A stretch of 64,000 nt of DNA from a virus. The stretch's first letter is position 1. Each line of letters begins with the position of its first letter. The stretch lies in the IMG/VR virus record IMGVR_UViG_3300033508_000321; one strand, given 5' to 3'. The notes under the pieces are model-generated. The model ran no database searches. It saw nothing but the letters and a program-made list of their open reading frames with translations, and was not told the DNA's origin. Positions 33,024 to 60,848 of this stretch are shown in pieces. A program made the position numbers and the translations under genes.

Positions 33024-33029
33024 TGAGGG

Positions 33030-33052: not shown

Positions 33053-33055
33053 ATT

Positions 33056-33283
33056 ATGTTACATCTCACACCAAAAGCGTATATTCAATTCATGGACTGG
33101 CTATCATTGTATAGCAATGAGATTGAAGAAAAAACCGGCCTAAATGCGTATGATTACGTAGTACAGCCGGTAGGCACACCACTTGGACTTACAGTAGGTA
33201 AGTTTCCCGAACCTCTGGCAATGTATATCATTGCACACTGCACGCAGCAAGAACCAGTAACAAAATTAAAGAAGATATGGTAA
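33056..33283 (+). CDS. Hypothetical protein
   Basis: 75 aa. The ATG follows directly after the terminator T-run. Confidence 0.45.
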   Translation: MLHLTPKAYIQFMDWLSLYSNEIEEKTGLNAYDYVVQPVGTPLGLTVGKFPEPLAMYIIAHCTQQEPVTKLKKIW

Positions 33284-35292: not shown

Positions 35293-35504
35293 GAGAATCA
35301 ATAAGACTTGAAACCGGACATAAACTAGATTACTACTTCGGTGATCTGGTTTACTTGAAATCAGACCCCGAACAAAGAATGCGGATAGTGGTAGGTGTAC
35401 TGCTTAGCCCTGACAAATGCGTGTGTTATCAGTTAGCCTGTGGTGAGGTGGTAAGTACACACTATTATGTAGAAATTTCAACCGATAAAAACGTGATGTT
35501 ATGA
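35289..35504 (+). CDS. Hypothetical protein
   Basis: 71 aa. ATGA overlaps on both sides. Confidence 0.5.
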   Translation: MRESIRLETGHKLDYYFGDLVYLKSDPEQRMRIVVGVLLSPDKCVCYQLACGEVVSTHYYVEISTDKNVML

Positions 35505-36724: not shown

Positions 36725-36923
36725 TGTAGTGAGTAAAGATCACGAATTTGAGATTAAGTACACCGATGCTGCCAGTTATAAGTTGAACATCTCAGACCTT
36801 GAGAAACTAGAGCGCAAATGTAGTATGAACCGTGAGCCGGTCTTTTTGGTGGAATTCCGTCAAATTGGTAAGACCTATGCCATAGTAGAATTAGGATATT
36901 TAGAAACTCTGGTTAAGTTTTAA
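36594..36923 (+). CDS. Small PD-(D/E)xK nuclease, Holliday-junction-resolvase-like (start uncertain)
   Basis: It has the E...SG...D...ExK arrangement: 'ELKLAKRLQG', 'NSGA', 'NDVV', 'FEIKY'. ATG 36594 overlaps the recombinase gene by 131 nt. An alternative start is TTG 36657. Confidence 0.5.
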   Translation: MENHWLQAQEKPSRKQSQKQELKLAKRLQGKVTANSGAAKNQNDVVSKDHEFEIKYTDAASYKLNISDLEKLERKCSMNREPVFLVEFRQIGKTYAIVELGYLETLVKF

Positions 36924-37068
36924 CAACTTATTTACAATTTTAGGAAACTTTGTTAAAAACTTGTTAATTTCTTATAGATTTTAACAAATCATTAACAAAG
37001 TTTCCTTTTATAATTTATTGGTGTTTAACAACTTATTAACAAATGCTGCTTTATCTTTGTTGTATAAA
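36920..37068 (+). repeat. 149-bp intergenic cassette, copy A
   Basis: Direct repeat at 36920-36937 and 37025-37042. Inverted arms AGGAAACTTTGTTAA 36942-36956 and TTAACAAAGTTTCCT 36992-37006. TATCTTTG at 37052-37059. Confidence 0.9.
37052..37059 (+). promoter_or_regulatory. TAnnTTTG box of cassette A
   Basis: TATCTTTG at cassette offset 132. Confidence 0.5.
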
Positions 37069-37102: not shown

Positions 37103-38263
37103 ATGACAACAATCAATTTCAACCCAAAACGAACCACTCAGGTTAAAGACGATTTTCGTTTTTACAAAGTAATAGAATCAGCCTTTGAAATTAAGGCAGA
37201 GGAGGTAGCAATACCTTACGAAACGGTGTATTCGAGTCGTACGGGTATGACCATGGCAATCAGAGCACGCATCCCCGCCGATGTACGTATAGTAGATTGT
37301 GAAACCCAGCGTACGAAATTCAACGACAAAATTTCACTGTCACAAATAGGACGCAAAGGCACACCAATGATTATCCTACATGAATGGAAAGATAGTCAAA
37401 CCGTAACCTTTGCAATCAGCGAAGCAAAGTACGGTATATGGAAACAAGCAGAAACTGAACTCAATGTTTTCTGTATATACAAGTCCGACAACACAAAGGA
37501 TCATACATATCAACTTAATGTTCACACTTGTAAGAGGGATAACCTCCGTGAGCTGCATCGCATAATAAGCCCTATGGCTGGGTTTGACCAGCCAAAAATA
37601 GGTGAGGAGTCAATAAGTATATTCAAAAACTTGGTAGTTGACCGCTTCGATGATTATTTCATCACATCGAAGGGGTGTGCGTACTACAAGTTTGGCAGGT
37701 ACAATCCGCTGGTGGAGTTCGATATGCTAATTCCCGGAAATGATTATTGGGAAGTTGCGAACGAGACAGGAATGGATGAGCGTACGTACAACGTATTGAA
37801 GCGCATGCGTACTGAGTTTACGGTGGTTACATATGGTATGCTATATGCCGAAATAACCATGACCCACCTTGAAATAGGTGAGGATTTTGCTGTATTTACA
37901 AATGGTAAAAAACAGCTATATATCTACGAAGGCAGTACACAGTACTATGAGTACGAGGATGAAAAAGGCGAATGCACAGCATCTGAAATGCGTTACAGCT
38001 GCCGCAAAAAAGAAATTTTTTACTTGCGTAGCCAGAATGACGCCGCAAGAATTTTAGAAAAAATAAATAGTATATCAGACGATACCGTTTTTACGGTAAC
38101 TGATTCGTATCTTGCTGGTAACTGCGCGGTTGGTACCAGCAATTTTATGAAAAAATATAATTTAAAAAGCCCCATCAGTATTGGTGACCTAAGGCAGCAC
38201 CCTCAGTATGTCGAGTTGCTAAGTAACGCTAGATTTCTAGCGGTGCTAGTTGGGAAAGAGTAG
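37103..38263 (+). CDS. Hypothetical protein (cargo of cassette A)
   Basis: 386 aa. No motif recognised. Bracketed by cassette A and the GGGGCGAAAGCCCC hairpin. Confidence 0.7.
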   Translation: MTTINFNPKRTTQVKDDFRFYKVIESAFEIKAEEVAIPYETVYSSRTGMTMAIRARIPADVRIVDCETQRTKFNDKISLSQIGRKGTPMIILHEWKDSQTVTFAISEAKYGIWKQAETELNVFCIYKSDNTKDHTYQLNVHTCKRDNLRELHRIISPMAGFDQPKIGEESISIFKNLVVDRFDDYFITSKGCAYYKFGRYNPLVEFDMLIPGNDYWEVANETGMDERTYNVLKRMRTEFTVVTYGMLYAEITMTHLEIGEDFAVFTNGKKQLYIYEGSTQYYEYEDEKGECTASEMRYSCRKKEIFYLRSQNDAARILEKINSISDDTVFTVTDSYLAGNCAVGTSNFMKKYNLKSPISIGDLRQHPQYVELLSNARFLAVLVGKE

Positions 38264-38271
38264 TAAAAAAC

Positions 38272-38288
38272 GGGGCGAAAGCCCCTTT
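38272..38288 (+). terminator. GNRA-loop hairpin terminator GGGGC-GAAA-GCCCC (copy 1 of 3)
   Basis: Identical 14-mer at 38272, 54228 and 58956, here followed by TTT. Confidence 0.6.
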
Positions 38289-39776: not shown

Positions 39777-41446
39777 GAGTATTCGATGCATTAAAAACTG
39801 ACTGGCTTGGACGTGGTGAAAACTATGTGAAACGTGCAGAATTAACTTTTGATTTGTTAACGCTTGAACCTTATTCTACTTTCATGTACAAAATACCGGC
39901 GGGTGCAGTTAGTTTCGTACAACCGCTCACCACTAAATTTGTCAGCACGATAAAACCGGTGACGATAAAGTATAGCGATAAAGGTAGCAGCACTGATGGT
40001 AAGCAAATTATAATCAGCACCGAGCCAGAGGCTACTTTAGAACCACAGAAAGCGTTGGACGTGATGATCGGTCTGGGATGCCGTGAAGTAGCGCACATCA
40101 TGTATACAACATTTGAGGTGGAGAAAAATGAGGTTTTGCGAGCGATTATAAACATTGTAGAGGATGAACGTATAGAGGATCGAATGGTAACAGATTTGCC
40201 CGGCGTTTTTCCATTCTTACAGCGTGCAAAAGCGTTCTTTTTTGACAGAATACCCGATGCGCCTAAAAACGAATTACAAGAGATATTTTTGGCCTTTTTA
40301 CGCTTAGTACGTTACCCTGCTACACTACCCGAGGAATTAGCTGATAAGTATAATGATGTGCTGGAACAGATACTTGAAATCTTGACACCGTACCCGAGCA
40401 CGTTCGAAGAGGTAAAAATTGCATCGAAAAAAATATACGAACTGTTTCTACAATTCATGGACGAGCAAGAAGAACAGCAACAACGGAATGAGCAAGGCGA
40501 AAGTGAGGATGTGGAAGAGGGCGAAGGGCAAAGCAGTGGTGAGGAATCTACTGAGGAAAAAATGCTACGTATGCTGAAAAGTTTGGCGCAAGCATTAGAA
40601 CCAGAGGTAGAAGGTGAAAAGCCAGAGGATACTCGAATACTACCAACCGAGGGCACGTGTGATGTATTTTCGGTAAGGTGGCAAAAACCCGGCGGAATGA
40701 TAAAAGGTAAACCTGACTTAAGTAGCGTAGCAGCTATCCGCCGTGAATTTCTACCGATTGACTATACCAAGAAACACGTGCTACACAATAAAAATAGCGG
40801 TAGCTTAGATGATACTGAACTGGTACGAGGCTTTGCCGGTAGTAAGAACATCTACGAGGTAACATCATACGGAAAAGCCGATATTTTGAATCTTGTTCTT
40901 TTGGTGGATCAATCTGGTAGCATGGATGGTAGCCGAATAGAAATGGCAAGAAACGTAGCTATAATCGTGAGGGAAGCAACACGTGGATTTTCATTTATTC
41001 GCTTTTTTGCTTATGGTCATTCTACTGAGGATAGTGGTAGACCTACACCTACGGACTTAGATATTTTTTGCGAAAAGGGCGTGGATAAATTGGATTCGAT
41101 ACAAGCGAAAAATGCTTGCAATCGTGATGGTAGCGCAATCATGGAGGTTACTGCTCGAGTACAAGCATTAAGCCCCTACAAAACTGTTATTCTGATGATC
41201 AGCGATGGCCAACCGAATGCCTTAGTACCACACGGGTTTACGGATGAAAGTTTTATACGTCACGCAGTAAAATTTGCGGAAAAACGGAAAACCAAAATAG
41301 CACACATAAGCATGGTAGGTTTATCGTGGAAAAACGTATACGCATACGAGATGGATGCAAGCAGTAATTTTACCATGAAAATGGTACTGATGCTTAGACA
41401 GGTATTGAAAGATAATTTTGCTCAAAATGTGTTAACAAAACTTTAA
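39773..41446 (+). CDS. vWA-domain protein (CobT / NorD-like partner of the AAA+ ATPase)
   Basis: MIDAS 'LVLLVDQSGSMDG', with a later 'MISDGQPN'. An acidic low-complexity stretch 'EEQQQRNEQGESEDVEEGEGQSSGEESTEE' lies mid-protein. Confidence 0.75.
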   Translation: MRVFDALKTDWLGRGENYVKRAELTFDLLTLEPYSTFMYKIPAGAVSFVQPLTTKFVSTIKPVTIKYSDKGSSTDGKQIIISTEPEATLEPQKALDVMIGLGCREVAHIMYTTFEVEKNEVLRAIINIVEDERIEDRMVTDLPGVFPFLQRAKAFFFDRIPDAPKNELQEIFLAFLRLVRYPATLPEELADKYNDVLEQILEILTPYPSTFEEVKIASKKIYELFLQFMDEQEEQQQRNEQGESEDVEEGEGQSSGEESTEEKMLRMLKSLAQALEPEVEGEKPEDTRILPTEGTCDVFSVRWQKPGGMIKGKPDLSSVAAIRREFLPIDYTKKHVLHNKNSGSLDDTELVRGFAGSKNIYEVTSYGKADILNLVLLVDQSGSMDGSRIEMARNVAIIVREATRGFSFIRFFAYGHSTEDSGRPTPTDLDIFCEKGVDKLDSIQAKNACNRDGSAIMEVTARVQALSPYKTVILMISDGQPNALVPHGFTDESFIRHAVKFAEKRKTKIAHISMVGLSWKNVYAYEMDASSNFTMKMVLMLRQVLKDNFAQNVLTKL

Positions 41447-41504
41447 CAAGCGTACGGGTAAGTAACTAAGTGAAATACAACTATATTTACAAGAAATAAA
41501 CAAC

Positions 41505-45421: not shown

Positions 45422-46598
45422 CCAGGCAAAAGCATTTGAAAAGCTAAAAACCCTTAAAGTAGGTGCACTTTTCATGTCACCGGGTGCGGGTAAAACCCTA
45501 ACAGCCTTTGAGCTTATTCATAGTGTAGAAGGTATTAACTACGTGTTATGGTTAACACCCTTTCAGACGAAAGAAAATTTGCGCAAAGAATTAACAGAGT
45601 ATGGTGGTTTTGACTTTGCCCATGATGTAGTGGGTATAGAAACACTTTCATCATCTGATGCTGTTTATCTGAAATTAAGTAAGAAGATACAAGAGCATAA
45701 CACATTTATAGTGTGTGATGAAAGCCTGAAAATAAAAAATTTGGCGGCAAAGCGTACCCAAAGAATCCTAGAACTGAGCAAATTTTGTGAGTACAAACTC
45801 ATATTGAATGGTACACCGCTAAGCAAGAATGTAATGGATTTATGGGCACAGTTACAATTCCTTAGCCCTAAAATACTAAATATGCCTTTGGCTCAGTACA
45901 AGAGTGTATTCGTGAAATACACCACCATCACGAAGAAAATAAACGGCTATAAAGTAACAAGGGAGTTTATCGATGGCTACGCCAATATTGATTACCTGTA
46001 CTCACTTATTAAACCCTACGTGTACGAGTGTGACCTTACAGTAAATGTAGAAAAACATTATGTAGAGTACATTTATGAGGTAGGTGAAGAAGCAAAAGAA
46101 GAGTATAACAGGTTAAAAAAGTTCATGTCTGAGCATGAATATTTGCTTTTCAGGAATAACAACGTATTCTTGGAACTGATACAAAACTTACAAATGGCTT
46201 ACTGTACAGTACCTGAAAAATTCGAACTCCTGGGGTGGGTGCTTACTCAGGTAGAACCAAAGAAAACCATTGTTTTTTGTAAATTTATACGTAGTGTTGA
46301 ATCCATTAGTAAGAAATTTCCATACCTTAAAGTACTGACCTACGGTAAACACGCATACGGGTTAAATTTGCAGGAATATAATACGGTTGTATTTTGGGAT
46401 AAAACCTTTGATTATGCGTTACGATTACAAGCCGAAAGGCGTATCTTTAGAACCGGGCAAACTGATATTTGTACGTATTATGACCTAACAGCTAGTACGG
46501 GTTTGGATAACATGATAAACGGAAATATAGAGCGGAAAGAATCCATGCTCAGTTACTTTAAGAAAATAGCATTTAAAACTTTTATTGAAAACTTATGA
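45402..46598 (+). CDS. SNF2-family helicase / ATPase
   Basis: Walker A 'SPGAGKTLTAFE'. 'VCDESLKIKN'. 'LNGTPLSKNVMDLWAQLQFLSP' (SNF2_N). Motif VI 'LQAERRIFRTGQT'. Confidence 0.8.
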   Translation: MMILLDDQAKAFEKLKTLKVGALFMSPGAGKTLTAFELIHSVEGINYVLWLTPFQTKENLRKELTEYGGFDFAHDVVGIETLSSSDAVYLKLSKKIQEHNTFIVCDESLKIKNLAAKRTQRILELSKFCEYKLILNGTPLSKNVMDLWAQLQFLSPKILNMPLAQYKSVFVKYTTITKKINGYKVTREFIDGYANIDYLYSLIKPYVYECDLTVNVEKHYVEYIYEVGEEAKEEYNRLKKFMSEHEYLLFRNNNVFLELIQNLQMAYCTVPEKFELLGWVLTQVEPKKTIVFCKFIRSVESISKKFPYLKVLTYGKHAYGLNLQEYNTVVFWDKTFDYALRLQAERRIFRTGQTDICTYYDLTASTGLDNMINGNIERKESMLSYFKKIAFKTFIENL

Positions 46599-47143
46599 AA
46601 AAAGCAGCGTTTAAAAGCCCTGTGTACAGTGTTGTAGCTGTACCGATTTATAAAATTGAGGCAAATAACTACAATCCAAACCACGTTGCAAAGCGTGAAA
46701 TGGACTTACTCTACCAAAGCATAAAATGTGATGGGTACACTATGCCTATTGTATGTTTCTATGATGATGAAAGGGATAAATACATTATCGTGGATGGTTT
46801 TCACCGTTATACGATTATGCTCAAATACAAAGATATTTTTGAGCGAGAAAATGGTATGTTACCGGTATCAGTTATTCACAAAGATCTAAGTGACCGAATG
46901 GCTTCAACAATTCGTCATAACAGGGCACGAGGTAAACATGAAGTGGAACTGCAAGCATCTTTAGTCGGGATGTTAAAATCTGGGTGGGATGAGCTAAAAA
47001 TAATGAAAGAGCTGGGCATGACCTTAGAAGAAGTACAACGTTTGATAGGTTTACGTGGTATAGCAAGTGAGATAAAAGGTGTACCTTATTCAATCGAACG
47101 CCAAATAATAGAAGCAGGGGAGGACGTTACTGATGAAGATTAA
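46595..47143 (+). CDS. ParB-like nuclease-domain protein (IbrB-like)
   Basis: 'NNYNPNHV', 'IIVDGFHRYTIM' and 'TIRHNRARGKH' fit the ParB/Srx-fold IbrB-type pattern as I recall it. Confidence 0.7.
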   Translation: MKKAAFKSPVYSVVAVPIYKIEANNYNPNHVAKREMDLLYQSIKCDGYTMPIVCFYDDERDKYIIVDGFHRYTIMLKYKDIFERENGMLPVSVIHKDLSDRMASTIRHNRARGKHEVELQASLVGMLKSGWDELKIMKELGMTLEEVQRLIGLRGIASEIKGVPYSIERQIIEAGEDVTDED

Positions 47144-47714
47144 ATTTATAGTAATGACCAGCGAGGATCCTAAAAGGATTGAAAATGTACAAAAAATGGA
47201 AATTCCGGACTTAGTAATTTACAGGGGTGATAACGATGACGTATTTCAAAAGTATCTTAATTGTTTTATCCTAGAATCTGAGTATGATGGCGTGCTAGTA
47301 CTTGAGGATGATGTACAACTTTGCTGGGATTTTTATACTAAAGTGTTAGGTATAATTCAAAAATATGCCAGTGATGTGATTAGCTTTTTTGAAAAGCCTA
47401 ATTCTAGACAGGTACTTGAAAAAGGTTTTAGGCCGGGGCGTGACTTTATGTTCAACCAGTGTAATTATTACCCTAAAGCTACATGTGAGTTATTTTTAGG
47501 TTCGGAAAACGTAGCTGAGTTTAAAAACTCATATTTCACTAAATACAAAGTTTGGGTAGCCCCGATCGATATTTACATAGCACACGTGCTAAGTAAATAC
47601 AAGTTAGAGTACCTTATGTACTTACCTTTTTTGGTGCAGCATTTACCCTTTAAATCTATTTTGGGTAACAGGTCTACCAAACGTCAAACCAAATTTTTTA
47701 TAGATGACCTATGA
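47133..47714 (+). CDS. Glycosyltransferase-like protein (GT25-like, tentative)
   Basis: 193 aa. 'IKFIVMTSEDPKRIENVQKM' and 'VLVLEDDVQLCWDF' resemble the GT25 N-terminus and EDD motif. Confidence 0.4.
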   Translation: MKIKFIVMTSEDPKRIENVQKMEIPDLVIYRGDNDDVFQKYLNCFILESEYDGVLVLEDDVQLCWDFYTKVLGIIQKYASDVISFFEKPNSRQVLEKGFRPGRDFMFNQCNYYPKATCELFLGSENVAEFKNSYFTKYKVWVAPIDIYIAHVLSKYKLEYLMYLPFLVQHLPFKSILGNRSTKRQTKFFIDDL

Positions 47715-48868
47715 AAAGAACTACAACGCTGGGCACGGAAAACGTGTTGGAATCTACACTAAAACGTATTGCTTACCTGTTTGATCACTATGATAATATT
47801 TCCTTATCATTCTCTGGTGGTAAAGATAGCACTGCTTTGTTTCATTTGGTGAATAACGAGGCTGTGAAACGTGATAGGAAATTTATTCTATACTTTCAAG
47901 ATCAGGAAGCAGAGTATCAGGGTACTATTGACCTAATGGAATGGGCTATGACTAGGCCAAACGTAATACCACTTTGGTATCAAGTACCGATTTTTATGAC
48001 CAATGCAGCTAGTCACCAACAACTATTTTTGTGGGCGTGGGGTGAGGGTGAAAAATGGGTGCGAGAAAAGCATCCGATGGCCATACAATCTATTGATGGA
48101 AAATATCCTAAGCGGTTTTATAAGTTTAACTTGTGGGTAGGTCAGCAACTAAGAAAATTGCCCGGAAATCATGTATCAATAATCGGATTAAGAGCCGAAG
48201 AAAGCCCTGATAGACGTTTTGTGATGTTTGGCGAAGACAGTGATTTGTTTTGGTTACGTAGAAAAACAGAGCCACATAAAGCATATCCTATTATTGATTG
48301 GGCATATACCGATGTGTGGAAGTACCTTATTGAAGGTAGTTACAGGTACAATAACGTGTATGATAAGATGTATATGCTAGGTGGTAATTTACGCCAATTC
48401 AGGGTTTCAAATTTGGTGCATGAAAAGGCATTCCGGTGTTTAACTGATTTGCAGGAATTAGAACCTGAAACGTATGATAAGTTAGAAGAACGTTTGCAGG
48501 GTGTACATACGGCAGCTATCTATGGCAAAGAAGCCTTGATTTATTCGATAAAAACCTTACCGGAAAGTTTTAAAACATGGAAAGAGTACAAGGATTTTCT
48601 ACTAAGTAGTATACACCCAGACCTGAGCAAATTGTTTCGTTATCAATGGTCACGTTTTGGTGATACGGACGATGTACGAGCTTGTAAATACATGGTAAAA
48701 CGTATTCTATTATGCGACTGGGAGGGTAACATCAAAGAACAGGATTGGATGAAATACTACCCTGAGTGGACTGTTAATAAATTCAACTACACCAAGGAAC
48801 AGATACTAGAAAAAAATAGGCAGAAACGTGAAGATCCAGTAATAAATAAATGGATGGCCAAGCTGTGA
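47711..48868 (+). CDS. PAPS reductase-family PP-loop protein (IbrA / DndC-like)
   Basis: PP-loop 'LSFSGGKDSTALFHL'. 'IIGLRAEESPDRR'. A long C-terminal extension follows. Confidence 0.75.
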   Translation: MKRTTTLGTENVLESTLKRIAYLFDHYDNISLSFSGGKDSTALFHLVNNEAVKRDRKFILYFQDQEAEYQGTIDLMEWAMTRPNVIPLWYQVPIFMTNAASHQQLFLWAWGEGEKWVREKHPMAIQSIDGKYPKRFYKFNLWVGQQLRKLPGNHVSIIGLRAEESPDRRFVMFGEDSDLFWLRRKTEPHKAYPIIDWAYTDVWKYLIEGSYRYNNVYDKMYMLGGNLRQFRVSNLVHEKAFRCLTDLQELEPETYDKLEERLQGVHTAAIYGKEALIYSIKTLPESFKTWKEYKDFLLSSIHPDLSKLFRYQWSRFGDTDDVRACKYMVKRILLCDWEGNIKEQDWMKYYPEWTVNKFNYTKEQILEKNRQKREDPVINKWMAKL

Positions 48869-48874
48869 AATGTT

Positions 48875-48906
48875 AAAACGCTGCTTAATTGCAGCGTTTT
48901 TTATTA
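48875..48906 (+). terminator. Rho-independent terminator
   Basis: AAAACGCTGC-ttaatt-GCAGCGTTTT followed by a T-rich run. Confidence 0.7.
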
Positions 48907-48926
48907 TTTTTGTTAAAATAAATGCA

Positions 48927-48934
48927 TAGATTTG
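48927..48934 (+). promoter_or_regulatory. TAnnTTTG box
   Basis: TAGATTTG, 17 nt upstream of ATG 48952. It lies inside the longer track ORF that starts at 48922. Confidence 0.45.
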
Positions 48935-48951
48935 TAAAAATTTTACATTTT

Positions 48952-49827
48952 ATGGACATAAACGAATTAAAAGAACTCATAAAACCCGCTTTTGCAAGCG
49001 TCGGTAAACTACCAAAAGAAGAGGCGAAGAACTACGGTAATTACAAATTGATGCCGGTAGAGATATTGGTGAAAGCGGGTTGGAATTACAAGCAAGAAAA
49101 CCCGTATACGAGTGATAAACTAAACGCTAATTTAAAGCGTAACGGGCAGGTAGAAAATATACAAGTACGATTACTTGATACAGGTTACTACGAGGTAGTA
49201 AATGGTAACCACCGCTTAGATGAAATCATAAAACTTGGGCGCAAAATGGTGGTGGTTTATGACCATGGAAAAGTAAGTTTAGCCGAGGCGAAGCGTATTG
49301 CCATTGAAACAAACGAAACGAAATTTAAAGCGGAAGAAACGCTTTTGGCGGAAGCAATCCGAGAACTCGAAGCAGAATTTGGCTTAGAAGACCTAGAGCA
49401 AACATTACCATTCTCGGATGAAGAAATGGAAAAAATGATGTCGGAAATGGATTCTGAGTTTGAGGAACCAACACAGGGTAATTATACACGCAAGATTGAA
49501 TCGCCTACCTATGAGCCAAAGAATGAAAAACCGCACACCATAGACTTGTACGACAAAAGCAAGTATGAGCAACTTTTAGAGGGTATAGAGGGTAGCTCAG
49601 CAGATCCAGAGGTTAAGATGTTTCTAAAAATTGCGGCGGCAAGGCACATAGTTTTTGACTATTCTAAGATAGCCGATTTTTATGCGCACAGCGATGCACA
49701 GGTACAACGTTTGATGGAGGATTCAGCACTCGTAATTATAGACTTTAATAGAGCTATTGAGCTAGGTTTTGTGCAGTTATCGGAGAATATAGCAAAACAA
49801 TACACAGAGGATTATGGAAAAGCCTAA
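48952..49827 (+). CDS. ParB-like nuclease-domain protein (second copy) with acidic linker and C-terminal domain
   Basis: 'YYEVVNGNHRLDEI' (DGxHR-type motif). I prefer ATG 48952 because the box at 48927 sits inside the alternative start at 48922. Confidence 0.65.
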   Translation: MDINELKELIKPAFASVGKLPKEEAKNYGNYKLMPVEILVKAGWNYKQENPYTSDKLNANLKRNGQVENIQVRLLDTGYYEVVNGNHRLDEIIKLGRKMVVVYDHGKVSLAEAKRIAIETNETKFKAEETLLAEAIRELEAEFGLEDLEQTLPFSDEEMEKMMSEMDSEFEEPTQGNYTRKIESPTYEPKNEKPHTIDLYDKSKYEQLLEGIEGSSADPEVKMFLKIAAARHIVFDYSKIADFYAHSDAQVQRLMEDSALVIIDFNRAIELGFVQLSENIAKQYTEDYGKA

Positions 49828-50677
49828 AGATTTTTGCATTTTTATTATCTCACATGGTAGGCCTGATAAGGTAATGACGTGGAATACTTTGAAAAAAGTT
49901 GGTAATACATCACCAGTTTACATTGTTATAGATGATACGGATAAAACATCGGAAAAATACTACACTAATTTCGGTAAAGAAACAGTAGTGATGTTCGATA
50001 AAGAAGCGATAGCCAAAACTACGGATCATGGAGATAATTTTTGGAACCTACGCACAACTACTCACGCACGAAATGCTTGCTTCGACATAGCTAAAAAATT
50101 AGGGTACACGTACTTTTTAGTGCTAGACGATGATTATACCTACTTTGCGTACACGGCAGACGATGCCTTTAACTACAATAGTAAGGGCACACCAGTAAAA
50201 GATATAAATAAAACTTTTTGTTTGTTTATCGATTTTTACAAGAGTATTCCAGCACTTAGTGTATGTTTTGCTCAAGGGGGCGACTTTGTGGGCGGCGAAA
50301 ATTCTGCTGTATTTAAAAAAGAACTATCAAGAAAGGCTATGAACTCGTGGTTTTGTTCTGTAGATCGCCCCTTTAAATTCATAAGTAGGTTGAATGAGGA
50401 TGTTAACACTTACTTGTGTCTGGGTGCCACAGGCGGTTTATTCTTTACAGTTACGTGGATAAGACTTGAGCAGATACAAACGCAGCTAAATTCAGGTGGA
50501 ATGACGGAGGCATACCTAGAAGGTGGTACATACGTAAAATCATTCTACACAGTGATGTACTGTCCATCTTTTGCTAAGGTAGGATTAATGGGTAACACCA
50601 ATAAAAGGTTGCACCATAGAATATCATGGAATAATGCAGTACCTAAGATTGTAAATGAAAATATTAGAAAAATATGA
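49814..50677 (+). CDS. GT-A-like glycosyltransferase candidate (DxD motif)
   Basis: 287 aa. 'FIISHGRPDKVMTWNTLKK', 'YIVIDDTD' and 'FLVLDDDYTYF'. The assignment is tentative. Confidence 0.4.
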   Translation: MEKPKDFCIFIISHGRPDKVMTWNTLKKVGNTSPVYIVIDDTDKTSEKYYTNFGKETVVMFDKEAIAKTTDHGDNFWNLRTTTHARNACFDIAKKLGYTYFLVLDDDYTYFAYTADDAFNYNSKGTPVKDINKTFCLFIDFYKSIPALSVCFAQGGDFVGGENSAVFKKELSRKAMNSWFCSVDRPFKFISRLNEDVNTYLCLGATGGLFFTVTWIRLEQIQTQLNSGGMTEAYLEGGTYVKSFYTVMYCPSFAKVGLMGNTNKRLHHRISWNNAVPKIVNENIRKI

Positions 50678-51168
50678 AAAAGAAAGAAAAAATTTGGGCG
50701 GAGGTTCAACCAAAAATATACGATGAAAAATACCACGATATAAAGATGGAAGAATTGGTGATGGAAGGGTTAACGTTGCAAGAAATTGCAGAAAAATTGG
50801 CGGTAGAATATCGAACATTAACAAAATGGTTAGTACGTTACCCATCACTGGCAGAAGCATTCAATCGTGGACGTATACCGAGAGATTTGGCGGTGGAAAA
50901 TGCCCTTTACAAGAGAGCTATTGGATATACGTATGAAGAAAAAATAGCTGAGTCAACTGGTACGATGGAGGAGGCGGAGGGGAAAAAAAGGGCGGGAAAA
51001 TTCCGAAGAGTAACAAAACATATGCCACCAGATGTAGAAGCAATAAAGATGTGGTTAAGTAATAAAAAACCACACCTGTGGTCAAACACTCAAAAGATAG
51101 ATGTAACATCGAAAGGACAACAAATGCCGATTGTAATGATAGGTGCACCACCGGAAGAGGAAAAATAG
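50674..51168 (+). CDS. Terminase small subunit-like HTH protein (gp3-type), or a regulator
   Basis: HTH 'LTLQEIAEKLAVEYRTLTKWL'. 'ALYKRAIGYTYEE' and 'PPDVEAIKMWLSNKKPHLW' fit small-terminase patterns. It lies 12.4 kb upstream of the terL start in this window. Confidence 0.45.
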   Translation: MKKKEKIWAEVQPKIYDEKYHDIKMEELVMEGLTLQEIAEKLAVEYRTLTKWLVRYPSLAEAFNRGRIPRDLAVENALYKRAIGYTYEEKIAESTGTMEEAEGKKRAGKFRRVTKHMPPDVEAIKMWLSNKKPHLWSNTQKIDVTSKGQQMPIVMIGAPPEEEK

Positions 51169-51301
51169 GCGTATATACTCGCCGACCAATTTCGGAACTC
51201 ATTCTTATAACTGATTGAAAATGTTATCGTGTAAGTGTTATTTCAGATATTTATTAACAAAGTGCGTACCCCGTTAACAATAGTTTTTGTATACTTGTCA
51301 G

Positions 51302-51336
51302 CCTGTTAGAGTGTTACAAACTTTAACAGGTTTTTT
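51302..51336 (+). terminator. Hairpin plus T-run in the 260-bp non-coding gap
   Basis: CCTGTTA-(15 nt)-TAACAGG followed by TTTTTTAATTTT. Confidence 0.4.
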
Positions 51337-51427
51337 AATTTTGTATGCTGATAATTAACAAGCTATTAACAATAAGTAAAAAGTTAATTAACTATTTTTA
51401 CATGGTCACTAAATATGTTAAAAACCG

Positions 51428-53357: not shown

Positions 53358-53734
53358 GCACACGTGCCTACATAGCAAGAAAAATAGATGATGGTTTTGA
53401 GTACATCTACTGCCACAATTCCGGTGAAGAAGACATAGCAGTATTGATAGACGATTACGGTACTGATGAAAAGGTAAAAGAACTAATATCCCTTGGTGAC
53501 ATTTCATCTTTGGGCTCGAAAGTAATCCCAAACCCAGGAAGACGTCACACATTCGAACATCCACAAAAAGACGTAACCGTAGCCTATTACCGAGACCGCA
53601 ACGAAGGCTGGTTACGAGTGAAACCGGGCAGAGTACCAGCGTTACACGAGCTGTTAGGTATAGCAGAAAGAGGAGGAATAGACTTTGTGTTTACATTTGA
53701 CAATGGTGTATGGGCTAGTTATGAGATAGTTTAA
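53354..53734 (+). CDS. Hypothetical protein
   Basis: 126 aa. ATGA overlap. Its stop lies inside the first direct repeat of cassette B. Confidence 0.55.
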   Translation: MSTRAYIARKIDDGFEYIYCHNSGEEDIAVLIDDYGTDEKVKELISLGDISSLGSKVIPNPGRRHTFEHPQKDVTVAYYRDRNEGWLRVKPGRVPALHELLGIAERGGIDFVFTFDNGVWASYEIV

Positions 53735-53879
53735 CAACTTATTTACAAATTGAGGAAACTTTGTTAAAAACTTGTTAATTTCTTATAGATTTTAACAAAT
53801 CATTAACAAAGTTTCCTTTTACAATTTTCTGGGTGTTAACAACTTATTAACAAATGTTACTTTATCTTTGTTGTATAAA
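53731..53879 (+). repeat. 149-bp intergenic cassette, copy B
   Basis: Same offsets as copy A: arms at 53753-53767 and 53803-53817, TATCTTTG at 53863-53870. The identical leader CAAATAAGAAAAACAC is shared with copy C. Confidence 0.9.
53863..53870 (+). promoter_or_regulatory. TAnnTTTG box of cassette B
   Basis: TATCTTTG, 26 nt before ATG 53897. Confidence 0.5.
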
Positions 53880-53896: not shown

Positions 53897-54220
53897 ATGG
53901 AAACTCAATTAGCAATCAGAACCAGACAACAAGAAATAGCTCAAACTATACTGGAACAACTAGGTGGATTAAATCGTTTAAATGCGATGTTAGGCTTAAA
54001 AGACTTGATGGTAAACGGTTATGGCCTCAGTTTCAAAATCAGCGTAAAAGCAGCCGCAAACTATGTAAACATCACATTAACCAGTGATGGTCTGTACTAC
54101 GTAGAATTGGGTAAAATTCGTGGCAAATCTTACAACATAGTAGCTAACTTTCAAGGCGTGTATGCTGACCAATTGAAAAGCATAATCGAAGATACAGCAA
54201 AAGTAAGACTATCATTATAA
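53897..54220 (+). CDS. Hypothetical protein (cargo of cassette B)
   Basis: 107 aa. Bracketed by cassette B and the GGGGCGAAAGCCCC hairpin. Confidence 0.65.
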   Translation: METQLAIRTRQQEIAQTILEQLGGLNRLNAMLGLKDLMVNGYGLSFKISVKAAANYVNITLTSDGLYYVELGKIRGKSYNIVANFQGVYADQLKSIIEDTAKVRLSL

Positions 54221-54227: not shown

Positions 54228-54241
54228 GGGGCGAAAGCCCC
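54228..54241 (+). terminator. GNRA-loop hairpin GGGGC-GAAA-GCCCC (copy 2 of 3)
   Basis: Identical 14-mer. The T-tract after this copy is weak. Confidence 0.45.
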
Positions 54242-54433: not shown

Positions 54434-55939
54434 ATGTGGAATCAAGATTTTTTCCCCACGCCGGCAGAGGTAGTATCACAGATGCTACTCGGTGAGGATT
54501 TAATCGGCAAAATAATTTTAGAGCCTTCAGCAGGTAAAGGTAACATAGTGGACATATTGGTAGAACGTGGTGCAAAAGAAGTGTTAGCGTGTGAGCAAGA
54601 ACCACAACTACGTAGAATACTCAAAGGCTGCAAAATCTTAGCCGCTGATTTTCTCACTCTTACCAGTGAGGCTGTTAGCCACATTGACTACATCATAGCA
54701 AACCCACCGTTTTCAGAGCAAGAAAAGCACATACAGCACATGATCGATATAGCACCCGATGGTTGCATCATTGTAACGTTGTGCAACTCGAATTTAACAA
54801 ACGCAAATACTACCTCACGCCATAGAATAATGAGCTACGCAAGTCAGTATGGCTATTCGCAGGATTTGGGTAGCGTTTTTAGTGATGCTGAGCGCACAAC
54901 GGATGTAAGCGTTTCAATGCTCAAAATTTTTAAACCGAAAACGGCGGAAAATGAGTTTGATGGGTATTTCGAATTAGACGATACACCAGAGGAGGATGGC
55001 GAAGGCATTATGAGCTATTCAATCATTCGGGAGTTCGTTAACCGATACGTAGGTGCGATAAAAGATTTTGACTCAGTATACGAAGCCCAAAAGCGGATGA
55101 ATAACCTAATACAGCCATTCAATAGCAGTATCGTTTTTTCCGCTCACGATGACAAAACACCACTAACACGTGAAGCATTCAAAAAGCAATTACAAAAAGC
55201 GGCGTGGAAAATGATTTTTTCGAAAATGGATATGCATAAGTACACTACCGAAAAGCTAATGACGCAGTTAAATAAATTCGTAGAACGTCAGCAACACGTG
55301 CCCTTTACCGTTAAAAATGTGTGGAAAATGATCGACATGATTGTCGGTACACATGATTCCCGGATGCAGTCTTTAATCGTAGAAATCTTTGATAAAATCA
55401 CAGCACACACACCCGATAATAAACTGGTGCAAGAAGGGTGGAAAACCAACAGCGAGTATATTGTTAACAAGCGATTTATTCTACCTTCGCACGATGTTCG
55501 AATGGGTTACAACGGTAAACCGGATTGGAACTGGAACCGAAATAATTATTTCTTAGATGACCTCACAAAAGCACTTAGGCTTGTAATGGGCAACGAGTTG
55601 GGAAAAGCAGCGAGAGCGGAATTTATTAAGTTAGAAGGTATACGTCCGGTGCAATGGTATGCCGTTGGTAGCTGCAAATGTATGCTTGAAAATGATGGTA
55701 CAATTCGTGAAGAACCCTTGGGATTCTCAGAGGTAATAAAATCGGCGGAATGGGGTGAGTGGTGTAGTTTCGGATACATAAAATTCAGATGCTACAAGAA
55801 GGGTACAGTACACGTGGAATTTCAAACAGAAGAAGTTTGGGCAAAATTTAACAACGTAGCAGCAAAAGCAAAAGGATTTCAGTTAGCAAGCAATTTCAAA
55901 CCAAATACTAAAAAGAATGGAAATAAGTTTAATTCCTAA
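54434..55939 (+). CDS. N6-adenine DNA methyltransferase with a roughly 300-aa C-terminal extension
   Basis: Motif I 'ILEPSAGKGN'. Motif IV 'IIANPPFSEQ'. Confidence 0.75.
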   Translation: MWNQDFFPTPAEVVSQMLLGEDLIGKIILEPSAGKGNIVDILVERGAKEVLACEQEPQLRRILKGCKILAADFLTLTSEAVSHIDYIIANPPFSEQEKHIQHMIDIAPDGCIIVTLCNSNLTNANTTSRHRIMSYASQYGYSQDLGSVFSDAERTTDVSVSMLKIFKPKTAENEFDGYFELDDTPEEDGEGIMSYSIIREFVNRYVGAIKDFDSVYEAQKRMNNLIQPFNSSIVFSAHDDKTPLTREAFKKQLQKAAWKMIFSKMDMHKYTTEKLMTQLNKFVERQQHVPFTVKNVWKMIDMIVGTHDSRMQSLIVEIFDKITAHTPDNKLVQEGWKTNSEYIVNKRFILPSHDVRMGYNGKPDWNWNRNNYFLDDLTKALRLVMGNELGKAARAEFIKLEGIRPVQWYAVGSCKCMLENDGTIREEPLGFSEVIKSAEWGEWCSFGYIKFRCYKKGTVHVEFQTEEVWAKFNNVAAKAKGFQLASNFKPNTKKNGNKFNS

Positions 55940-56697: not shown

Positions 56698-56969
56698 TAA
56701 ACCAGAAAATTAAAGATGCTATTGAGAATGGCTATTTAGATGATAGCGTATGCGTTAACCCCGATGGTTATTTTGTAACCGTAGAAGTTAAGTTACGCAT
56801 ACCGAAGAGTTTTATGCACCAAGTTCATACAAGGCAGATAGAGAAAGGATTGAAGAAGTACGGTAAAACCATTGACGATTGCGAACCGGATGAGCATCCG
56901 TGGGAACTGATGGCGATTGAAGAAATGATCGATTTATTGGCATATTACTTTAAAAACAAGCAACAATGA
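56694..56969 (+). CDS. Hypothetical protein
   Basis: 91 aa. ATGA overlaps on both sides. Confidence 0.5.
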   Translation: MINQKIKDAIENGYLDDSVCVNPDGYFVTVEVKLRIPKSFMHQVHTRQIEKGLKKYGKTIDDCEPDEHPWELMAIEEMIDLLAYYFKNKQQ

Positions 56970-57625
56970 AAGTAGAAAGATCATTGCGTGTACTAATAAC
57001 GCATGAAGAAAGTCAAACAGTAATGGAGGCGTTTTTGAATGCCGGACATGATGCGTATAGCTGCGACTTATTGCCAGCAAGTGGTAAATACCCTGAAAGG
57101 CACTTGCAGATGGATTGCTTTGAGGCCATAAAATTTATTAAACCGGATTTTTTAGGGATGCACCCGGAGTGTACTCGATTAACAGTTGCGGCAAATAAAT
57201 ATTACAAGCCCGAATATGCTGAAAGGTTTCCAGATATACACACGCAGCGAGCCGAGGCGGTTGACCATTTTTTGAAATGCGCCGAAGCACTAGAGCACGT
57301 TGGTACGGGTTACATTGAAAACCCAATAGGCATAATGAGCAGGTTGCATAAAAAGCCAACTCAAATAGTACAACCTTATCAATTCGGACATTCTGAACGT
57401 AAAAGCACTTGTTTATGGCTTGCCGGATTGCCTACGTTGTACGCCACTAAAGTAGTTGAGCCTGATATAATCGTGCATAAAAGTGGTAGAACTGACAGCC
57501 GCTTGCACTACGAAACTCTTAAACTGCCAAGAGAGGAAAGAAGAAAAGCACGGTCAAAAACATTTCCGGGTATCGCTCAGGCAATGGCCGAACAATGGAC
57601 TAATTATTTACTTAATAAATTATAA
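56966..57625 (+). CDS. C5-cytosine-methyltransferase-like protein with a non-canonical motif I
   Basis: 'GMHPECTRL' (PC-like), 'YIENPIG' (ENV-like), 'FGHSERKSTCLW', 'RSKTFPGIAQAMAEQW'. The N-terminus is 'VLITHEESQTV' instead of a Gly-rich SAM loop. Confidence 0.5.
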   Translation: MKVERSLRVLITHEESQTVMEAFLNAGHDAYSCDLLPASGKYPERHLQMDCFEAIKFIKPDFLGMHPECTRLTVAANKYYKPEYAERFPDIHTQRAEAVDHFLKCAEALEHVGTGYIENPIGIMSRLHKKPTQIVQPYQFGHSERKSTCLWLAGLPTLYATKVVEPDIIVHKSGRTDSRLHYETLKLPREERRKARSKTFPGIAQAMAEQWTNYLLNKL

Positions 57626-57627
57626 CA

Positions 57628-58446
57628 ATGAAAGTAGAAATTTTAGCAGATTCACTGCACCGAGGCCACCGCCTCACCACTTTCCGACTCACGTTTCCTC
57701 AAATCATAGTAAAGGAAATGCTTCGGCATAGAATGTTTTCTTTCGCAAGTCTGAGTATGCGGGCTATTGGCTTAGATAGAAACATAGAAAAAATAAAGGC
57801 GGATATGTGGCGACCTTTGAGCTGGTTACCTGAGCACAAAGGTATGTGTACTGATGAGGTAATTGAAAACCGGGAAGAACTGGACGAGCTACATAATGAG
57901 CTATTCCAAATCACTATGCGATACGTAAGACAGTTGCAGCAAAGAAACGTATCCCACCAAATCGTTAACCGGTACATAGAACATTTCGGGCAAGTGCAGA
58001 TGATTGTATCAGCAACCGAATGGGAAAACTTCTACAAGTTACGCAGGGGTAAACGTGCTGAGCAGCACATAAAACTTTTGGCGGAAACGATGTACGATGC
58101 TCAAAATACGAGTACACCATACACGTCCGATGACCGCTTCTGGCATATGCCATTCGTTGGTGGTATAGAAGAAAACGTGGCGAAAGTAGCACGTGTTTCG
58201 TTTAGTCAAGATAAGGTATTCACACCAGAGGAAAATAAAAACTTGTACAAGAAACTTTTAGCAAGCGGTGAAATGTCACCATTTGAACACGTGGCCGTGG
58301 CAATGGGTAGCCGTTACTATGATTATTCACGAACCGTTACCGGTGGTTTAGAGCATGGATGGGATAAAAATTTCCGTGGTTTTATTTCTCTTCGCACGCT
58401 GGTGGAAAACCCTTTGAACGTAGACTACGTGGAAATGGCAGTGTAG
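57628..58446 (+). CDS. thyX: Flavin-dependent thymidylate synthase
   Basis: Exact ThyX signature RHRxxSxxxxSxR in 'LRHRMFSFASLSMRA'. 272 aa. Confidence 0.85.
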   Translation: MKVEILADSLHRGHRLTTFRLTFPQIIVKEMLRHRMFSFASLSMRAIGLDRNIEKIKADMWRPLSWLPEHKGMCTDEVIENREELDELHNELFQITMRYVRQLQQRNVSHQIVNRYIEHFGQVQMIVSATEWENFYKLRRGKRAEQHIKLLAETMYDAQNTSTPYTSDDRFWHMPFVGGIEENVAKVARVSFSQDKVFTPEENKNLYKKLLASGEMSPFEHVAVAMGSRYYDYSRTVTGGLEHGWDKNFRGFISLRTLVENPLNVDYVEMAV

Positions 58447-58448: not shown

Positions 58449-58597
58449 TTAACAACTTATTTACAATTAAAGGAAACTTTGTTAAAAACTTGTTAATTTC
58501 TAATAGATTTTAACAAATCATTAACAAAGTTTCCTTTTATAATTTATTGGTGTTTAACAACTTATTAACAAATGATGCTTTATCTTTGTTGTATAAA
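58449..58597 (+). repeat. 149-bp intergenic cassette, copy C
   Basis: Same offsets as the other copies: arms at 58471-58485 and 58521-58535, TATCTTTG at 58581-58588. Confidence 0.9.
58581..58588 (+). promoter_or_regulatory. TAnnTTTG box of cassette C
   Basis: TATCTTTG, 26 nt before ATG 58615. Confidence 0.5.
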
Positions 58598-58614: not shown

Positions 58615-58941
58615 ATGAGAACTTTAACAAGCAGTTTCACAAGATTAGAGGAAAACACACTTTTTTCCGCTGAATTTCAACAAGCATTAACAGAAGTGCA
58701 AAATATGGTACTGGGATTAAGCCCAATGAAAGCCGAACAGGGAAAGTTATACGCAGCGGAAGCAGCCGGGGAACTTTCCGAGTACGAGGTTGACAAGCTG
58801 GTAGAAACTACCATAGTTGAGCACAAGAAATTCACGGCAAAGTTCTACAAATTGGAACTTAACGATGATGACCAAGGGCAGTATTCAGCTACCGAGGGTG
58901 CGTTTTTTGCCTCCGGTGTAGCCACACTAACAATATACTAG
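58615..58941 (+). CDS. Hypothetical protein (cargo of cassette C)
   Basis: 108 aa. Bracketed by cassette C and the GGGGCGAAAGCCCC hairpin. Confidence 0.65.
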   Translation: MRTLTSSFTRLEENTLFSAEFQQALTEVQNMVLGLSPMKAEQGKLYAAEAAGELSEYEVDKLVETTIVEHKKFTAKFYKLELNDDDQGQYSATEGAFFASGVATLTIY

Positions 58942-58955: not shown

Positions 58956-58972
58956 GGGGCGAAAGCCCCTTT
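58956..58972 (+). terminator. GNRA-loop hairpin GGGGC-GAAA-GCCCC (copy 3 of 3)
   Basis: Identical 14-mer followed by TTT. Confidence 0.6.
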
Positions 58973-60292: not shown

Positions 60293-60423
60293 AAGGCATT
60301 ATACCGCACCTGAGCACGTATGATGCTACGCATCTGCTACAGCAAGTAGAAAGCCTGTATGGTCGGAAAACCATTGAAGAAGCCATCTTATTTTTACAAA
60401 TGACTTACACCGGCAGAGTATGA
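60250..60423 (+). CDS. Hypothetical 57-aa protein (not in the ORF track)
   Basis: ATG 60250 to TGA 60421-60423. The stop overlaps the next ATG (ATGAATG). 'MDTISKEEFIEAVLKGIIPHLSTYDATHLLQQVESLYGRKTIEEAILFLQMTYTGRV'. Confidence 0.4.
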   Translation: MDTISKEEFIEAVLKGIIPHLSTYDATHLLQQVESLYGRKTIEEAILFLQMTYTGRV

Positions 60424-60848
60424 ATGATGCAATGTTTAGCAGTAAGAGGCATGACTACGAAACACCGTTGGATTTTTTCGCTTTGCTCAATGAGCAGTAC
60501 TTCTTCGATTTGGATGTGTGTGCAAGCAGTGCAAATACCAAGTGCTCGAATTTCTTTTCGGTAGATGATAACGGTCTGGAAAAAGAATGGTACGGAACGT
60601 GTTGGATGAATCCACCCTATGGTCGTGAAATCGGGAAATGGGTAGCAAAAGCGGCAAGCGAAGCCGAGAAAGGAATTACCATTGTAGCGTTGCTACCTGC
60701 CAGACCAGACACGAAATGGTTTCACCAACACATCTACGGTAAACACGAAATACAGTTTATCAAAGGGCGTCTAAAATTTGTTGGTGCCCCTAGCTCAGCC
60801 CCGTTTCCTTCAATGCTCGTAATATTTCGCAAAGAATGGAAGCAGTAA
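60420..60848 (+). CDS. Phage-type N6-adenine DNA methyltransferase (Dam-like small family)
   Basis: 'YETPLDFF', 'DVCAS', 'WMNPPYGREIGKWVAKA' (NPPY), 'LLPARPDTKWFH'. Confidence 0.8.
   Translation: MNDAMFSSKRHDYETPLDFFALLNEQYFFDLDVCASSANTKCSNFFSVDDNGLEKEWYGTCWMNPPYGREIGKWVAKAASEAEKGITIVALLPARPDTKWFHQHIYGKHEIQFIKGRLKFVGAPSSAPFPSMLVIFRKEWKQ

Follow-up and report, generated by a model that had tools for sequence, protein, structure and literature searches.

Phased TTAACAA heptamers at the promoters of a phage genome as probable sites of an OmpR/PhoB-family regulator

The 64,000-nucleotide stretch of viral DNA analysed here (IMG/VR record IMGVR_UViG_3300033508_000321; hereafter the window) carries at its early and middle promoters an element composed of two direct copies of the heptamer TTAACAA, the starts of which lie 11 bp apart (TTAACAA-N4-TTAACAA). 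We consider these tandem heptamers to be sites of a winged-helix regulator of the OmpR/PhoB family, which would be read by a host protein in this phage and by a phage-encoded protein in some other lineages, and we would put the probability of this reading at about 0.55. Three lines of evidence converge on such a reader: the form of the repeat, its WalR-like sequence, and the gene context. The motif stands in register with promoters, is spread across phages and is found beside genes for regulators of this class. The promoter logic of Bacteroidota phages is almost unstudied beyond the -33/-7 consensus, and the element offers a testable regulatory code consisting of a tandem heptamer, three phased positions and two orientations.

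Enrichment and phasing of the heptamer

The heptamer occurs 62 times in the window against 31.2 expected, and TTAACAA-N4-TTAACAA with at most one mismatch occurs 20 times against 0.25 expected, a count reached in none of 100 shuffles. Markov models of order 1-3 trained solely on the 3.1 kb of intergenic DNA in the window (30% GC, motif included) predict 3.6-12.3 heptamers, compared with 35 observed, and 0.003-0.023 exact pairs, compared with 13 observed. This test is conservative because the training DNA contains the motif, and the enrichment claimed in a preliminary description of this DNA survives the correction for AT-richness. Among same-strand spacings of up to 70 nt, 11 dominates (11 times), along with its multiples 33 (three times), 44 (six times) and 55 (three times); the remaining eight spacings are 61 (three times) and 20, 23, 34, 59 and 70 (once each).

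All pairs listed in the preliminary description were recovered, namely 22017/22028 (second copy TTAACAT), 26473/26484, 26944/26955, 32253/32264, 41432/41443 and 51355/51366, together with 36981/36992 and 37025/37036 in a repeated promoter cassette (cassette A, see below) and their equivalents in cassettes B and C. The single heptamers at 51254 and 51274, and the one at 10162 with an opposite-strand copy at 10211, were also found. Pairs are, however, present in about half of the early/middle intergenic gaps rather than in most of them, as had been stated.

The element might in principle be a functionless by-product of AT-rich intergenic composition or of cassette duplication. The three cassettes are about 90-97% identical to each other and do inflate the raw counts; since they are copies of one another, only about 7-8 pair loci are independent. 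These are still far above chance, at least six loci outside the cassettes carry pairs, the intergenic models yield at most 0.02 pairs against the 13 observed, and the same pair recurs at the same distances in unrelated phages. The by-product reading is thereby already refuted, and we give it next to no weight.

Position of the pairs relative to promoters

The promoter-like boxes in the window are of the Bacteroidota type, TAnnTTTG, and the heptamer arrays end 9, 19-20 or 32 nt from a -7 box. The 9-nt class comprises the array at the dut promoter and the fourth pair (P4) of each cassette, where the distance of 9 nt reported earlier is exact. When the box is taken as -12 to -5, one of the heptamers in the 9- and 20-nt classes has its ACAA core exactly at -36 to -33, the normal place of the -33 TTTG, so that the earlier proposal of a pair standing in for the -33 element holds for the 9-nt class. 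Pairs stand before DNA-metabolism operons, the tRNA gene and the small-gene operons at 41505 and 51428; the late-gene promoters at 6708, 8899, 48905, 59762 and 63536 are without them. The pairs point in the direction of transcription, except for the second pair (P2) of each cassette and a degenerate pair at 10211-10228.

The dUTPase gene (26526-26933) is preceded by a plus-strand promoter (26450-26507) in which a four-unit array, previously listed as one pair, extends over 26450-26490 (unit starts at 26450, 26461, 26473 and 26484) and is followed after 9 nt by the -7 box TAAATTTG (26500-26507). The sites of the 19-20-nt class also lie on the plus strand. The promoter of the operon 32346-36923, encoding PolA, a RecA-like protein and a resolvase, spans 32253-32297 and combines an exact pair with the exact -7 box TACTTTTG (32290-32297) after 19 nt. 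Two further sites have boxes of the form TAnnTTTA 20 nt after an exact pair: the promoter region (26944-26989) of the operon 26995-32138, which contains unknown genes, a DnaB-like helicase and a primase, with the imperfect box TAATTTTA at 26982-26989, and the promoter region (51336-51400) of the operon starting at 51428, with the pair at 51355-51372 and the imperfect box TATTTTTA at 51393-51400.

The 32-nt class has two plus-strand members. The tRNA-Met promoter (22017-22074) consists of the degenerate pair TTAACAAaattTTAACAT, 9 nt, the -33 element TTG (22044-22046), 20 nt and the -7 box TATCTTTG (22067-22074), and is the sole site in the window with the canonical upstream architecture found in other phages (see below). 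A parallel is provided by two IMG/VR stretches (L065 and L138), in which a pair-type promoter lies right after the 3' end of a tRNA in phage tRNA clusters. The second member, upstream of the operon starting at 41505 (41413-41489), has the exact pair 41432-41449 at 32 nt from the imperfect box TATATTTA (41482-41489). At this site and at the one ahead of 51428, a perfect TAATTTTG box (41413-41420 and 51336-51343, respectively) precedes the exact pair by exactly 11 nt, so that the pair comes just downstream of where a start site may be. That this arrangement occurs twice (41413-41449 and 51336-51372) is unlikely by chance.

Heptamers are also found at 10162-10228, in the divergent region that separates the only minus-strand gene (9614-10129) from the protease/scaffold gene (10233). 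This region contains a single plus-strand heptamer at 10162 and the degenerate minus-strand pair 10211-10228, which is oriented toward the only minus-strand gene; no canonical box at the standard distance was found there.

Repeated promoter cassettes

The cassettes share the layout P1(+), P2(-), P3(+), P4(+), then the -7 box TATCTTTG, and cassettes A-C lie on the plus strand. Cassette A (36920-37059) contains P1 at 36920-36937, P2 at 36950-36967, P3 at 36981-36998 and P4 at 37025-37042, followed after 9 nt by the -7 box (37052-37059), and drives the gene 37103-38263. In cassette B (53731-53870), P1 to P4 occupy 53731-53748, 53761-53778, 53792-53809 and 53836-53853, with the -7 box at 53863-53870 ahead of the gene 53897-54220. 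In cassette C (58449-58588), they occupy 58449-58466, 58479-58496, 58510-58527 and 58554-58571, with the -7 box at 58581-58588 ahead of the gene 58615-58941. Each of the three drives one gene, and each unit is closed by the hairpin GGGGCGAAAGCCCC (38272-38285 for cassette A; identical copies at 54228-54241 and 58956-58969). A fourth, shorter cassette (D) lies in 2.2 kb missing from the window. The four are identical from P1 to eight bases beyond the -7 box; P3 and P4 are 44 bp apart (4 x 11), and it is exactly this 44-bp unit that is deleted in cassette D. With eight half-sites in about 125 bp, each cassette is denser than the 260-bp gap at 51169-51427, which had been described as the densest site.

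Together, P2 and P3 form a palindrome with 26-nt arms. Its RNA fold is far stronger than in shuffles (z = -4.5), and a U-rich tract comes after it; because of both features, it may also insulate or terminate upstream transcription. The promoter-gene-hairpin modules resemble mobile regulatory cassettes. T4-type PeSL cassettes are promoter-early plus stem-loop modules repeated around the genome, and cassettes A-D are similar to them in being near-identical promoter modules in short units closed by a stereotyped hairpin. The two have no sequence relation, however, and the cassettes of the window add four regulator-site pairs and a long palindrome.

The element in other phages

We scanned IMG/VR for pair-N{0,30}-TAnnTTTG and obtained at least 119 stretches, from contigs of 23-46% GC. 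Distance statistics were based on 106 non-redundant sites among the matches listed: the pair ends 29-30 nt from the box at 43 of them and 20 nt from it at 14, and at another 23 it ends 2 nt from a "box" that is really a -33 element, with the consensus TTAACAAnnnnTTAACAA-aaTAAATTTGG-N19/20-TAtaTTTG. Chance would have spread the distances evenly, in contrast to these sharp peaks. The position weight matrix of the 106 sites reads pair, 6 nt, TTTG, 20 nt, TAtaTTTG. Array length tracks position among the matches listed: four-unit arrays end 9 nt from the box, three-unit arrays 9, 18-20 or 29-30 nt from it, and two-unit arrays mainly about 30 nt from it, some others forming a group at 20. As a tendency, therefore, the upstream edge is held near -60 while arrays with more units reach further toward the promoter. 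Several contigs contain multiple promoters of this kind, with 13 in the contig L093. The inverted pair TTGTTAA-N4-TTGTTAA peaks at 26-28 nt (33 of 62 non-redundant sites among the matches listed) and often directly follows a terminator; in this geometry, its TTGT core lies on the same base pairs as the ACAA of the forward class.

Among cultured phages, the element is found in Tenacibaculum phage Larrie, which has an RNA polymerase of its own. About 17 Larrie promoters take the form TTTTAACAAAAyTTTAACAw-N29-31-TAynTTTG; they are restricted to a single 9-kb block of tiny genes, the rest of its 77.5 kb being free of them. A few copies are present in Cellulophaga phi4:1 and Chryseobacterium MA9V-2, and none in Flavobacterium phage 11b. 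The earlier suggestion of a phage-specific promoter class has to be abandoned, as numerous unrelated phage contigs, and Larrie too, make use of the element. The only protein common to the window and the Larrie promoter block is a DUF4942 protein, located amid pair-bearing promoters in both. No regulator family is common to the 122 motif loci, the largest shared family being the GIY-YIG homing endonucleases, and the window shares only four unrelated proteins, none of them a regulator, with one motif locus each. This absence of a shared regulator fits a reader that is often supplied by the host.

For phylogenetic footprinting, we found no close relatives of the window beyond the same-sample strains L003 and L053, which at 97-99% identity are too close to be informative. 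The TTAACAA motif is not present in distant PolA relatives (31-39% identity). In L002, a distant relative with syntenic replication genes, positions equivalent to the pair sites of the window are occupied by another repeated promoter-like motif, TGATTTGGAACTT...TTGTATATT (5587-5622 and 12537-12572), which looks like that of an extracytoplasmic-function (ECF) sigma factor.

The positions of the pairs in other phages also bear on another explanation, in which the pairs are UP-element-like, each heptamer being a subsite for one C-terminal domain of the host RNA polymerase's alpha subunit, and the promoters are strong, factor-independent early promoters. The canonical position of the pair, at about -60 to -43 and immediately upstream of -33, and two subsites 11 bp apart are as expected for an UP element, and a flexibly tethered domain would allow the AACAA/TTGTT core to lie at the same coordinates in both orientations. 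The occurrence in unrelated phages without a shared regulator fits as well, as does the confinement of the Larrie copies to the tiny-gene block, outside the DNA-metabolism and structural modules. However, one C:G pair of the heptamer is invariant, in contrast to UP elements of the A-tract kind, and the 9- and 20-nt classes of the window, like the arrays of three and four units, reach -22, where alpha cannot sit. Neither would an UP element account for the PhoB-like genes located behind some of the arrays (see below). On the host side, we fetched 16 tuf loci (10 from Flavobacterium and 6 from Bacteroidales) and scanned five of them, four from Flavobacterium and one from Bacteroidales, the remainder sharing the same gene order; no pair with up to two mismatches was present at rpsU, tRNA-tuf or any intergenic promoter region of the five, and the rpsU and tRNA-tuf promoters carry plain A/T-rich upstream DNA. 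We rejected a generic host UP element on these grounds and regard the UP-element reading as a whole as improbable.

PhoB/OmpR-type proteins as candidate readers

The complement of the pair, TGTTAA-N5-TGTTAA, fits exactly the WalR/VicR consensus TGTWAH-N5-TGTWAH, the direct repeat of a winged-helix regulator of the OmpR family (PMC4168254). The sites further agree with the OmpR/PhoB class in their 6-7-bp direct repeats at 11 bp, their arrays of 2-4 units and their TGTWAH/TTAACA half-site, and they are in helical register with the core promoter (9, 19-20 and 32 nt in the window; peaks at 29-30, 20 and 9 nt in IMG/VR). TGTTAA is the complement of the TTAACA box of Bacillus subtilis PhoP and is one base off the Salmonella PhoP box.

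We searched the DNA-binding domains of PhoB, OmpR and WalR against the 8,434 open reading frames (ORFs) of all motif-bearing loci. Proteins with a Trans_reg_C domain were found in four contigs (L093, L119, L166 and L115), and in all four a TTAACA array lies directly upstream of the Trans_reg_C gene. The L093 protein is a bare DNA-binding domain of 127 amino acids whose best solved matches are the DNA-binding domain of Escherichia coli PhoB (E = 5e-18), followed by RegX3 (E = 2e-14), both of which are phosphate regulators. The other three proteins have an N-terminal domain that is not recognised as a receiver by Pfam. For a reciprocal test, relatives of the response-regulator-like protein were retrieved from IMG/VR by protein similarity, resulting in seven loci in six contigs with 44-50% identity. 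In the roughly 100 nt upstream of the gene, every one of the seven has 2-4 TTAACA units in phase, and in most cases TATATTTG follows about 30 nt beyond the array; four of the seven are not among the forward pair-plus-box stretches listed, and one of these four comes from a contig seen in the inverted scan. In total, eight motif-bearing phage contigs encode OmpR/PhoB-type winged-helix proteins, in each case directly behind a TTAACA array, which we regard as the decisive context. The earlier proposal that one-turn phasing points to a tandem-binding protein is supported, and in other phages PhoB/OmpR-type winged-helix genes directly follow such arrays. An OmpR/PhoB-type site is the best-supported of the mechanisms that we considered.

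Three loci with response-regulator-like genes (L308, L309 and L311) have, besides the upstream array, an extra TTAACAA at about 3975-3990, just downstream of the TATATTTG box of the regulator gene itself, which looks like an autorepression site.

We could not tie any helix-turn-helix (HTH) or winged-helix protein of the window phage to the motif. Pfam scans of 74 predicted proteins, comprising all from 21-64 kb and another four encoded within the first 21 kb (with E < 0.01 or a looser cut-off for 73 of the 74), returned no Trans_reg_C domain, sigma factor or significant HTH. An unfiltered hmmsearch with Trans_reg_C that took in every ORF of the window, of the strains L003 and L053 and of Larrie gave nothing below E = 0.02, and the weak match in Larrie (E = 0.022) was unconvincing on inspection. 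When every ORF of the window was aligned to the Trans_reg_C profile with hhalign, the maximum probability was 16%, for gp62694, which does not look like a winged helix and was dismissed. The minus-strand gene 9614-10129 was likewise discarded as a regulator, having no family or solved-structure match. A host-encoded reader is therefore suggested by elimination for this phage, in which no such gene was found.

The same searches are relevant to a third explanation, that the pairs are operators of an unrecognised phage-encoded repressor or switch that shuts off early/middle promoters, for example gp22443 (gene 22443-23528) with its winged-helix-like N-terminus. Overlap of the sites with the -33 element and spacer, the two pairs located 11 nt downstream of perfect TAATTTTG boxes, and the four pairs of each cassette, including the palindromic P2 and P3, would suit such a protein. 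gp22443 contains a MarR/PadR-like stretch, and in the 97% identical strain L053 (2878-4370) the 5' part of its gene is swapped (49% protein identity) and a stand-alone paralogue of the winged-helix-like N-terminus has been gained just upstream. The PadR match is not significant (E = 0.32), however, and against the Trans_reg_C profile the N-terminus of gp22443 reaches an hhalign probability of only 0.1%; as the reader, gp22443 is without support. Its relatives number only two in 5.8 billion proteins, while the motif is widespread, and a plain repressor needs no strict helical register with the -7 box. Overall, a dedicated phage repressor appears unlikely to us.

Some resemblance of the heptamer to DnaA boxes and IHF sites was set aside, as the matches are partial and the full second heptamer is conserved.

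Proposed mode of action and relation to known systems

An OmpR/PhoB-type regulator would bind to one DNA face as an array of head-to-tail units that keeps register with a Bacteroidota -33/-7 promoter. In the common architecture, the array occupies about -60 to -43, and a -33 TTTG of the normal kind follows just downstream. In the window phage, the array would have moved one or two 11-bp units toward the promoter, so that a half-site core lands on -33. The sites would tie the DNA-metabolism operons and the four promoter cassettes to the regulator. Several other phages presumably encode the regulator themselves, with its gene behind an array, whereas here a host response regulator of the PhoB type most likely reads the sites. 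Binding itself, the host origin of the reader in this phage, and a role in either activation or repression are what we infer from the DNA.

The -33-replacing geometry would correspond to the design of the pho box of E. coli, at which PhoB stands in for the -35 contact. The half-site of the E. coli pho box is CTGTCAT, compared with TTAACAA in the window. Like the element described here, the pho box, of which structures are available as complexes of PhoB with DNA and of PhoB and sigma4 with DNA (PDB 1GXP and 3T72), comprises two direct repeats of 7 bp that are separated by 4 bp and together span 18 bp. Its position is also similar, about 10 bp upstream of the -10 element and replacing the -35 element, compared with the 9 nt between the dut and cassette sites and the -7 box. 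The winged helix of PhoB binds head-to-tail, as we propose from sequence for the window, and its DNA-binding domain is the best match of the L093 protein that lies beside such arrays. The two systems differ in that the window has Bacteroidota -33/-7 promoters, in that the sites of other phages are mostly one or two turns further upstream, with the -33 element kept, and in the lack of pst/pho genes downstream of host matches (see below).

The boxes of WalR/VicR and B. subtilis PhoP share the direct repeats and the 11-bp periodicity. PhoP-activated Bacillus promoters have arrays of up to four units at about -60 to -20, similar to the phage arrays. WalR/VicR and PhoP are, however, Firmicutes proteins with phosphorylatable receivers; here, the promoters are of the Bacteroidota type and the phage-encoded versions have no recognisable receiver or lack one altogether. 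The MotA box of phage T4 provides an analogy, as a protein-bound element replaces the -35 contact and the host -10-type element is kept. MotA, in contrast, acts as a monomer on a single box and needs AsiA, whereas TTAACAA forms a tandem repeat at several phased positions, and MotA has no sequence or fold relation to the proposed reader. Cyanophage promoters carry Pho boxes and NtcA sites, and promoters of the phages phi29 and Nf carry boxes of the host regulator Spo0A. In these cases, as proposed here, sites of the response-regulator class couple phage transcription to a host signal (PMC2731898 for the Spo0A boxes). Unlike them, the TTAACAA element dominates the promoters of whole early/middle gene blocks in many phage lineages, and some phages have a copy of the regulator themselves.

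Several observations weigh against an OmpR/PhoB-type site. The two pairs that follow perfect TAATTTTG boxes are in a repressor-like position, and inverted pairs, too, are frequent at a fixed distance, which is less typical of activators that contact the polymerase in a single orientation. A relative of the L093 protein with 43% identity, in a 310-kb contig (L314), has no upstream array. Our searches of this phage, of its strain variants and of Larrie turned up no Trans_reg_C protein and no further candidate for the reader. Finally, we scanned one genome for each of 185,579 species for the 9-nt architecture only, and obtained 22 matches from mixed phyla, roughly at chance level and none with pst/pho genes downstream. 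Two Bacteroidota matches precede CotH/LTD and VTC-domain genes, which is a hint only, and we gave up the idea of a conserved host regulon with the exact 9-nt architecture.

A more specific version of the favoured reading is possible but tentative. In this version, TTAACAA-N4-TTAACAA would be an undescribed PhoB-type operator of Flavobacteriia-like Bacteroidota, possibly their Pho box, to which many unrelated phages would have wired whole sets of early/middle promoters; some would bring PhoB mimics, either receiver-less or with a pseudo-receiver, that fire the promoters whatever the host signal, and others, this phage among them, would depend on the host regulator. Our literature search found no paper on the motif or on a Bacteroidetes Pho box. 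If this version is correct, infection by the host-dependent phages would be coupled to the phosphate or stress state of the host. More generally, a host regulator as the reader would mean that gene expression of aquatic Bacteroidota phages is gated by a host two-component signal. The small phage PhoB-like proteins are candidate readers, and Larrie is a cultured test system. The element also offers a way of predicting early gene blocks in the genomes of uncultivated phages.

The gap at 51169-51427

The gap follows terS (phrog_309, E = 1e-33). It contains, in order, two single heptamers, a terminator-like hairpin, the TAATTTTG box, the exact pair, a 10-bp palindrome and TATTTTTA. The single plus-strand heptamers (51254-51280; starts at 51254 and 51274) are 20 bp apart and outside the 11-bp register. 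The hairpin and its T-run (51300-51332, plus strand), whose arms contain TTAACAG-like half-sites, end the operon of a ParB-like gene, a glycosyltransferase gene and terS (48922-51168). The perfect palindrome GTTAATTAAC is situated at 51383-51392, between the pair and the next gene, and TATTTTTA lies 27 nt ahead of the next start codon. No RNA family match was found in the gap with Rfam.

The gap had been put forward as a major control region or an origin. Its location directly after terS, its four heptamers, the hairpin and the palindrome could indeed suggest a replication origin or a pac site, with the heptamers as iterons or TerS sites. Yet only a single pair is in register, as opposed to an iteron array, and the same motif is scattered over about 10 other promoters and the promoters of other phages, which also speaks against a reading by TerS (gp50674). 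The hairpin and T-run are scored as a terminator, nothing unusual is seen in the fold of the gap as a whole (z = -1.4), and there is no GC-skew switch anywhere in the window. An origin or pac site is hence very improbable, and nothing marks the gap out as a master control region. With its terminator-like hairpin, one pair and a -7 box, it is a terminator-promoter junction, sparser in sites than the cassettes.

Genome setting

The window represents a nearly complete phage genome with 39% GC and almost all genes on the plus strand; its source contig is 66,454 bp long. The 99% identical IMG/VR fragment L003 links position 64000 to position 1 via 2,234 extra bases (5850-8083 of L003), which hold the remainder of terL and cassette D. 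Because L003 bridges the two ends, the genome map is circular or terminally redundant, with a length of about 66.2-66.5 kb. Structural genes, including a Mu-type portal, a MuF-like protein and the protease/scaffold gene, occupy about 1-21 kb. They are followed by the tRNA-Met gene (22084-22155), the sole Rfam match in the window, and by a DNA-metabolism block at about 22-37 kb (helicase, dUTPase, DnaB-like helicase, primase, PolA, RecA-like protein and resolvase). The run of small genes after about 37 kb includes DNA-modification genes, terS and a lysozyme gene, and terL starts at the end of the window. terS (50674-51168) lies about 12 kb from terL (about 63560 onward) and shares its operon with the ParB-like gene and the glycosyltransferase gene.

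A gene set that is probably for DNA modification is located at 46595-50677, 54434-55939, 56966-58446 and 60420-60848. It comprises two ParB-like proteins, a PAPS reductase with DUF3440, a DUF4942 protein, a ThyX-like protein, a Dam methylase and a TET-associated glycosyltransferase (PF20691, E = 7e-31), and suggests that the DNA of this phage is modified. The MuF-like minor head protein (4572-5999) carries a C-terminal ADP-ribosyltransferase toxin domain (PF03496, E = 2.5e-7) and is possibly an injected enzyme. The domain brings to mind Alt of phage T4, which ADP-ribosylates RNA polymerase on its alpha subunit.

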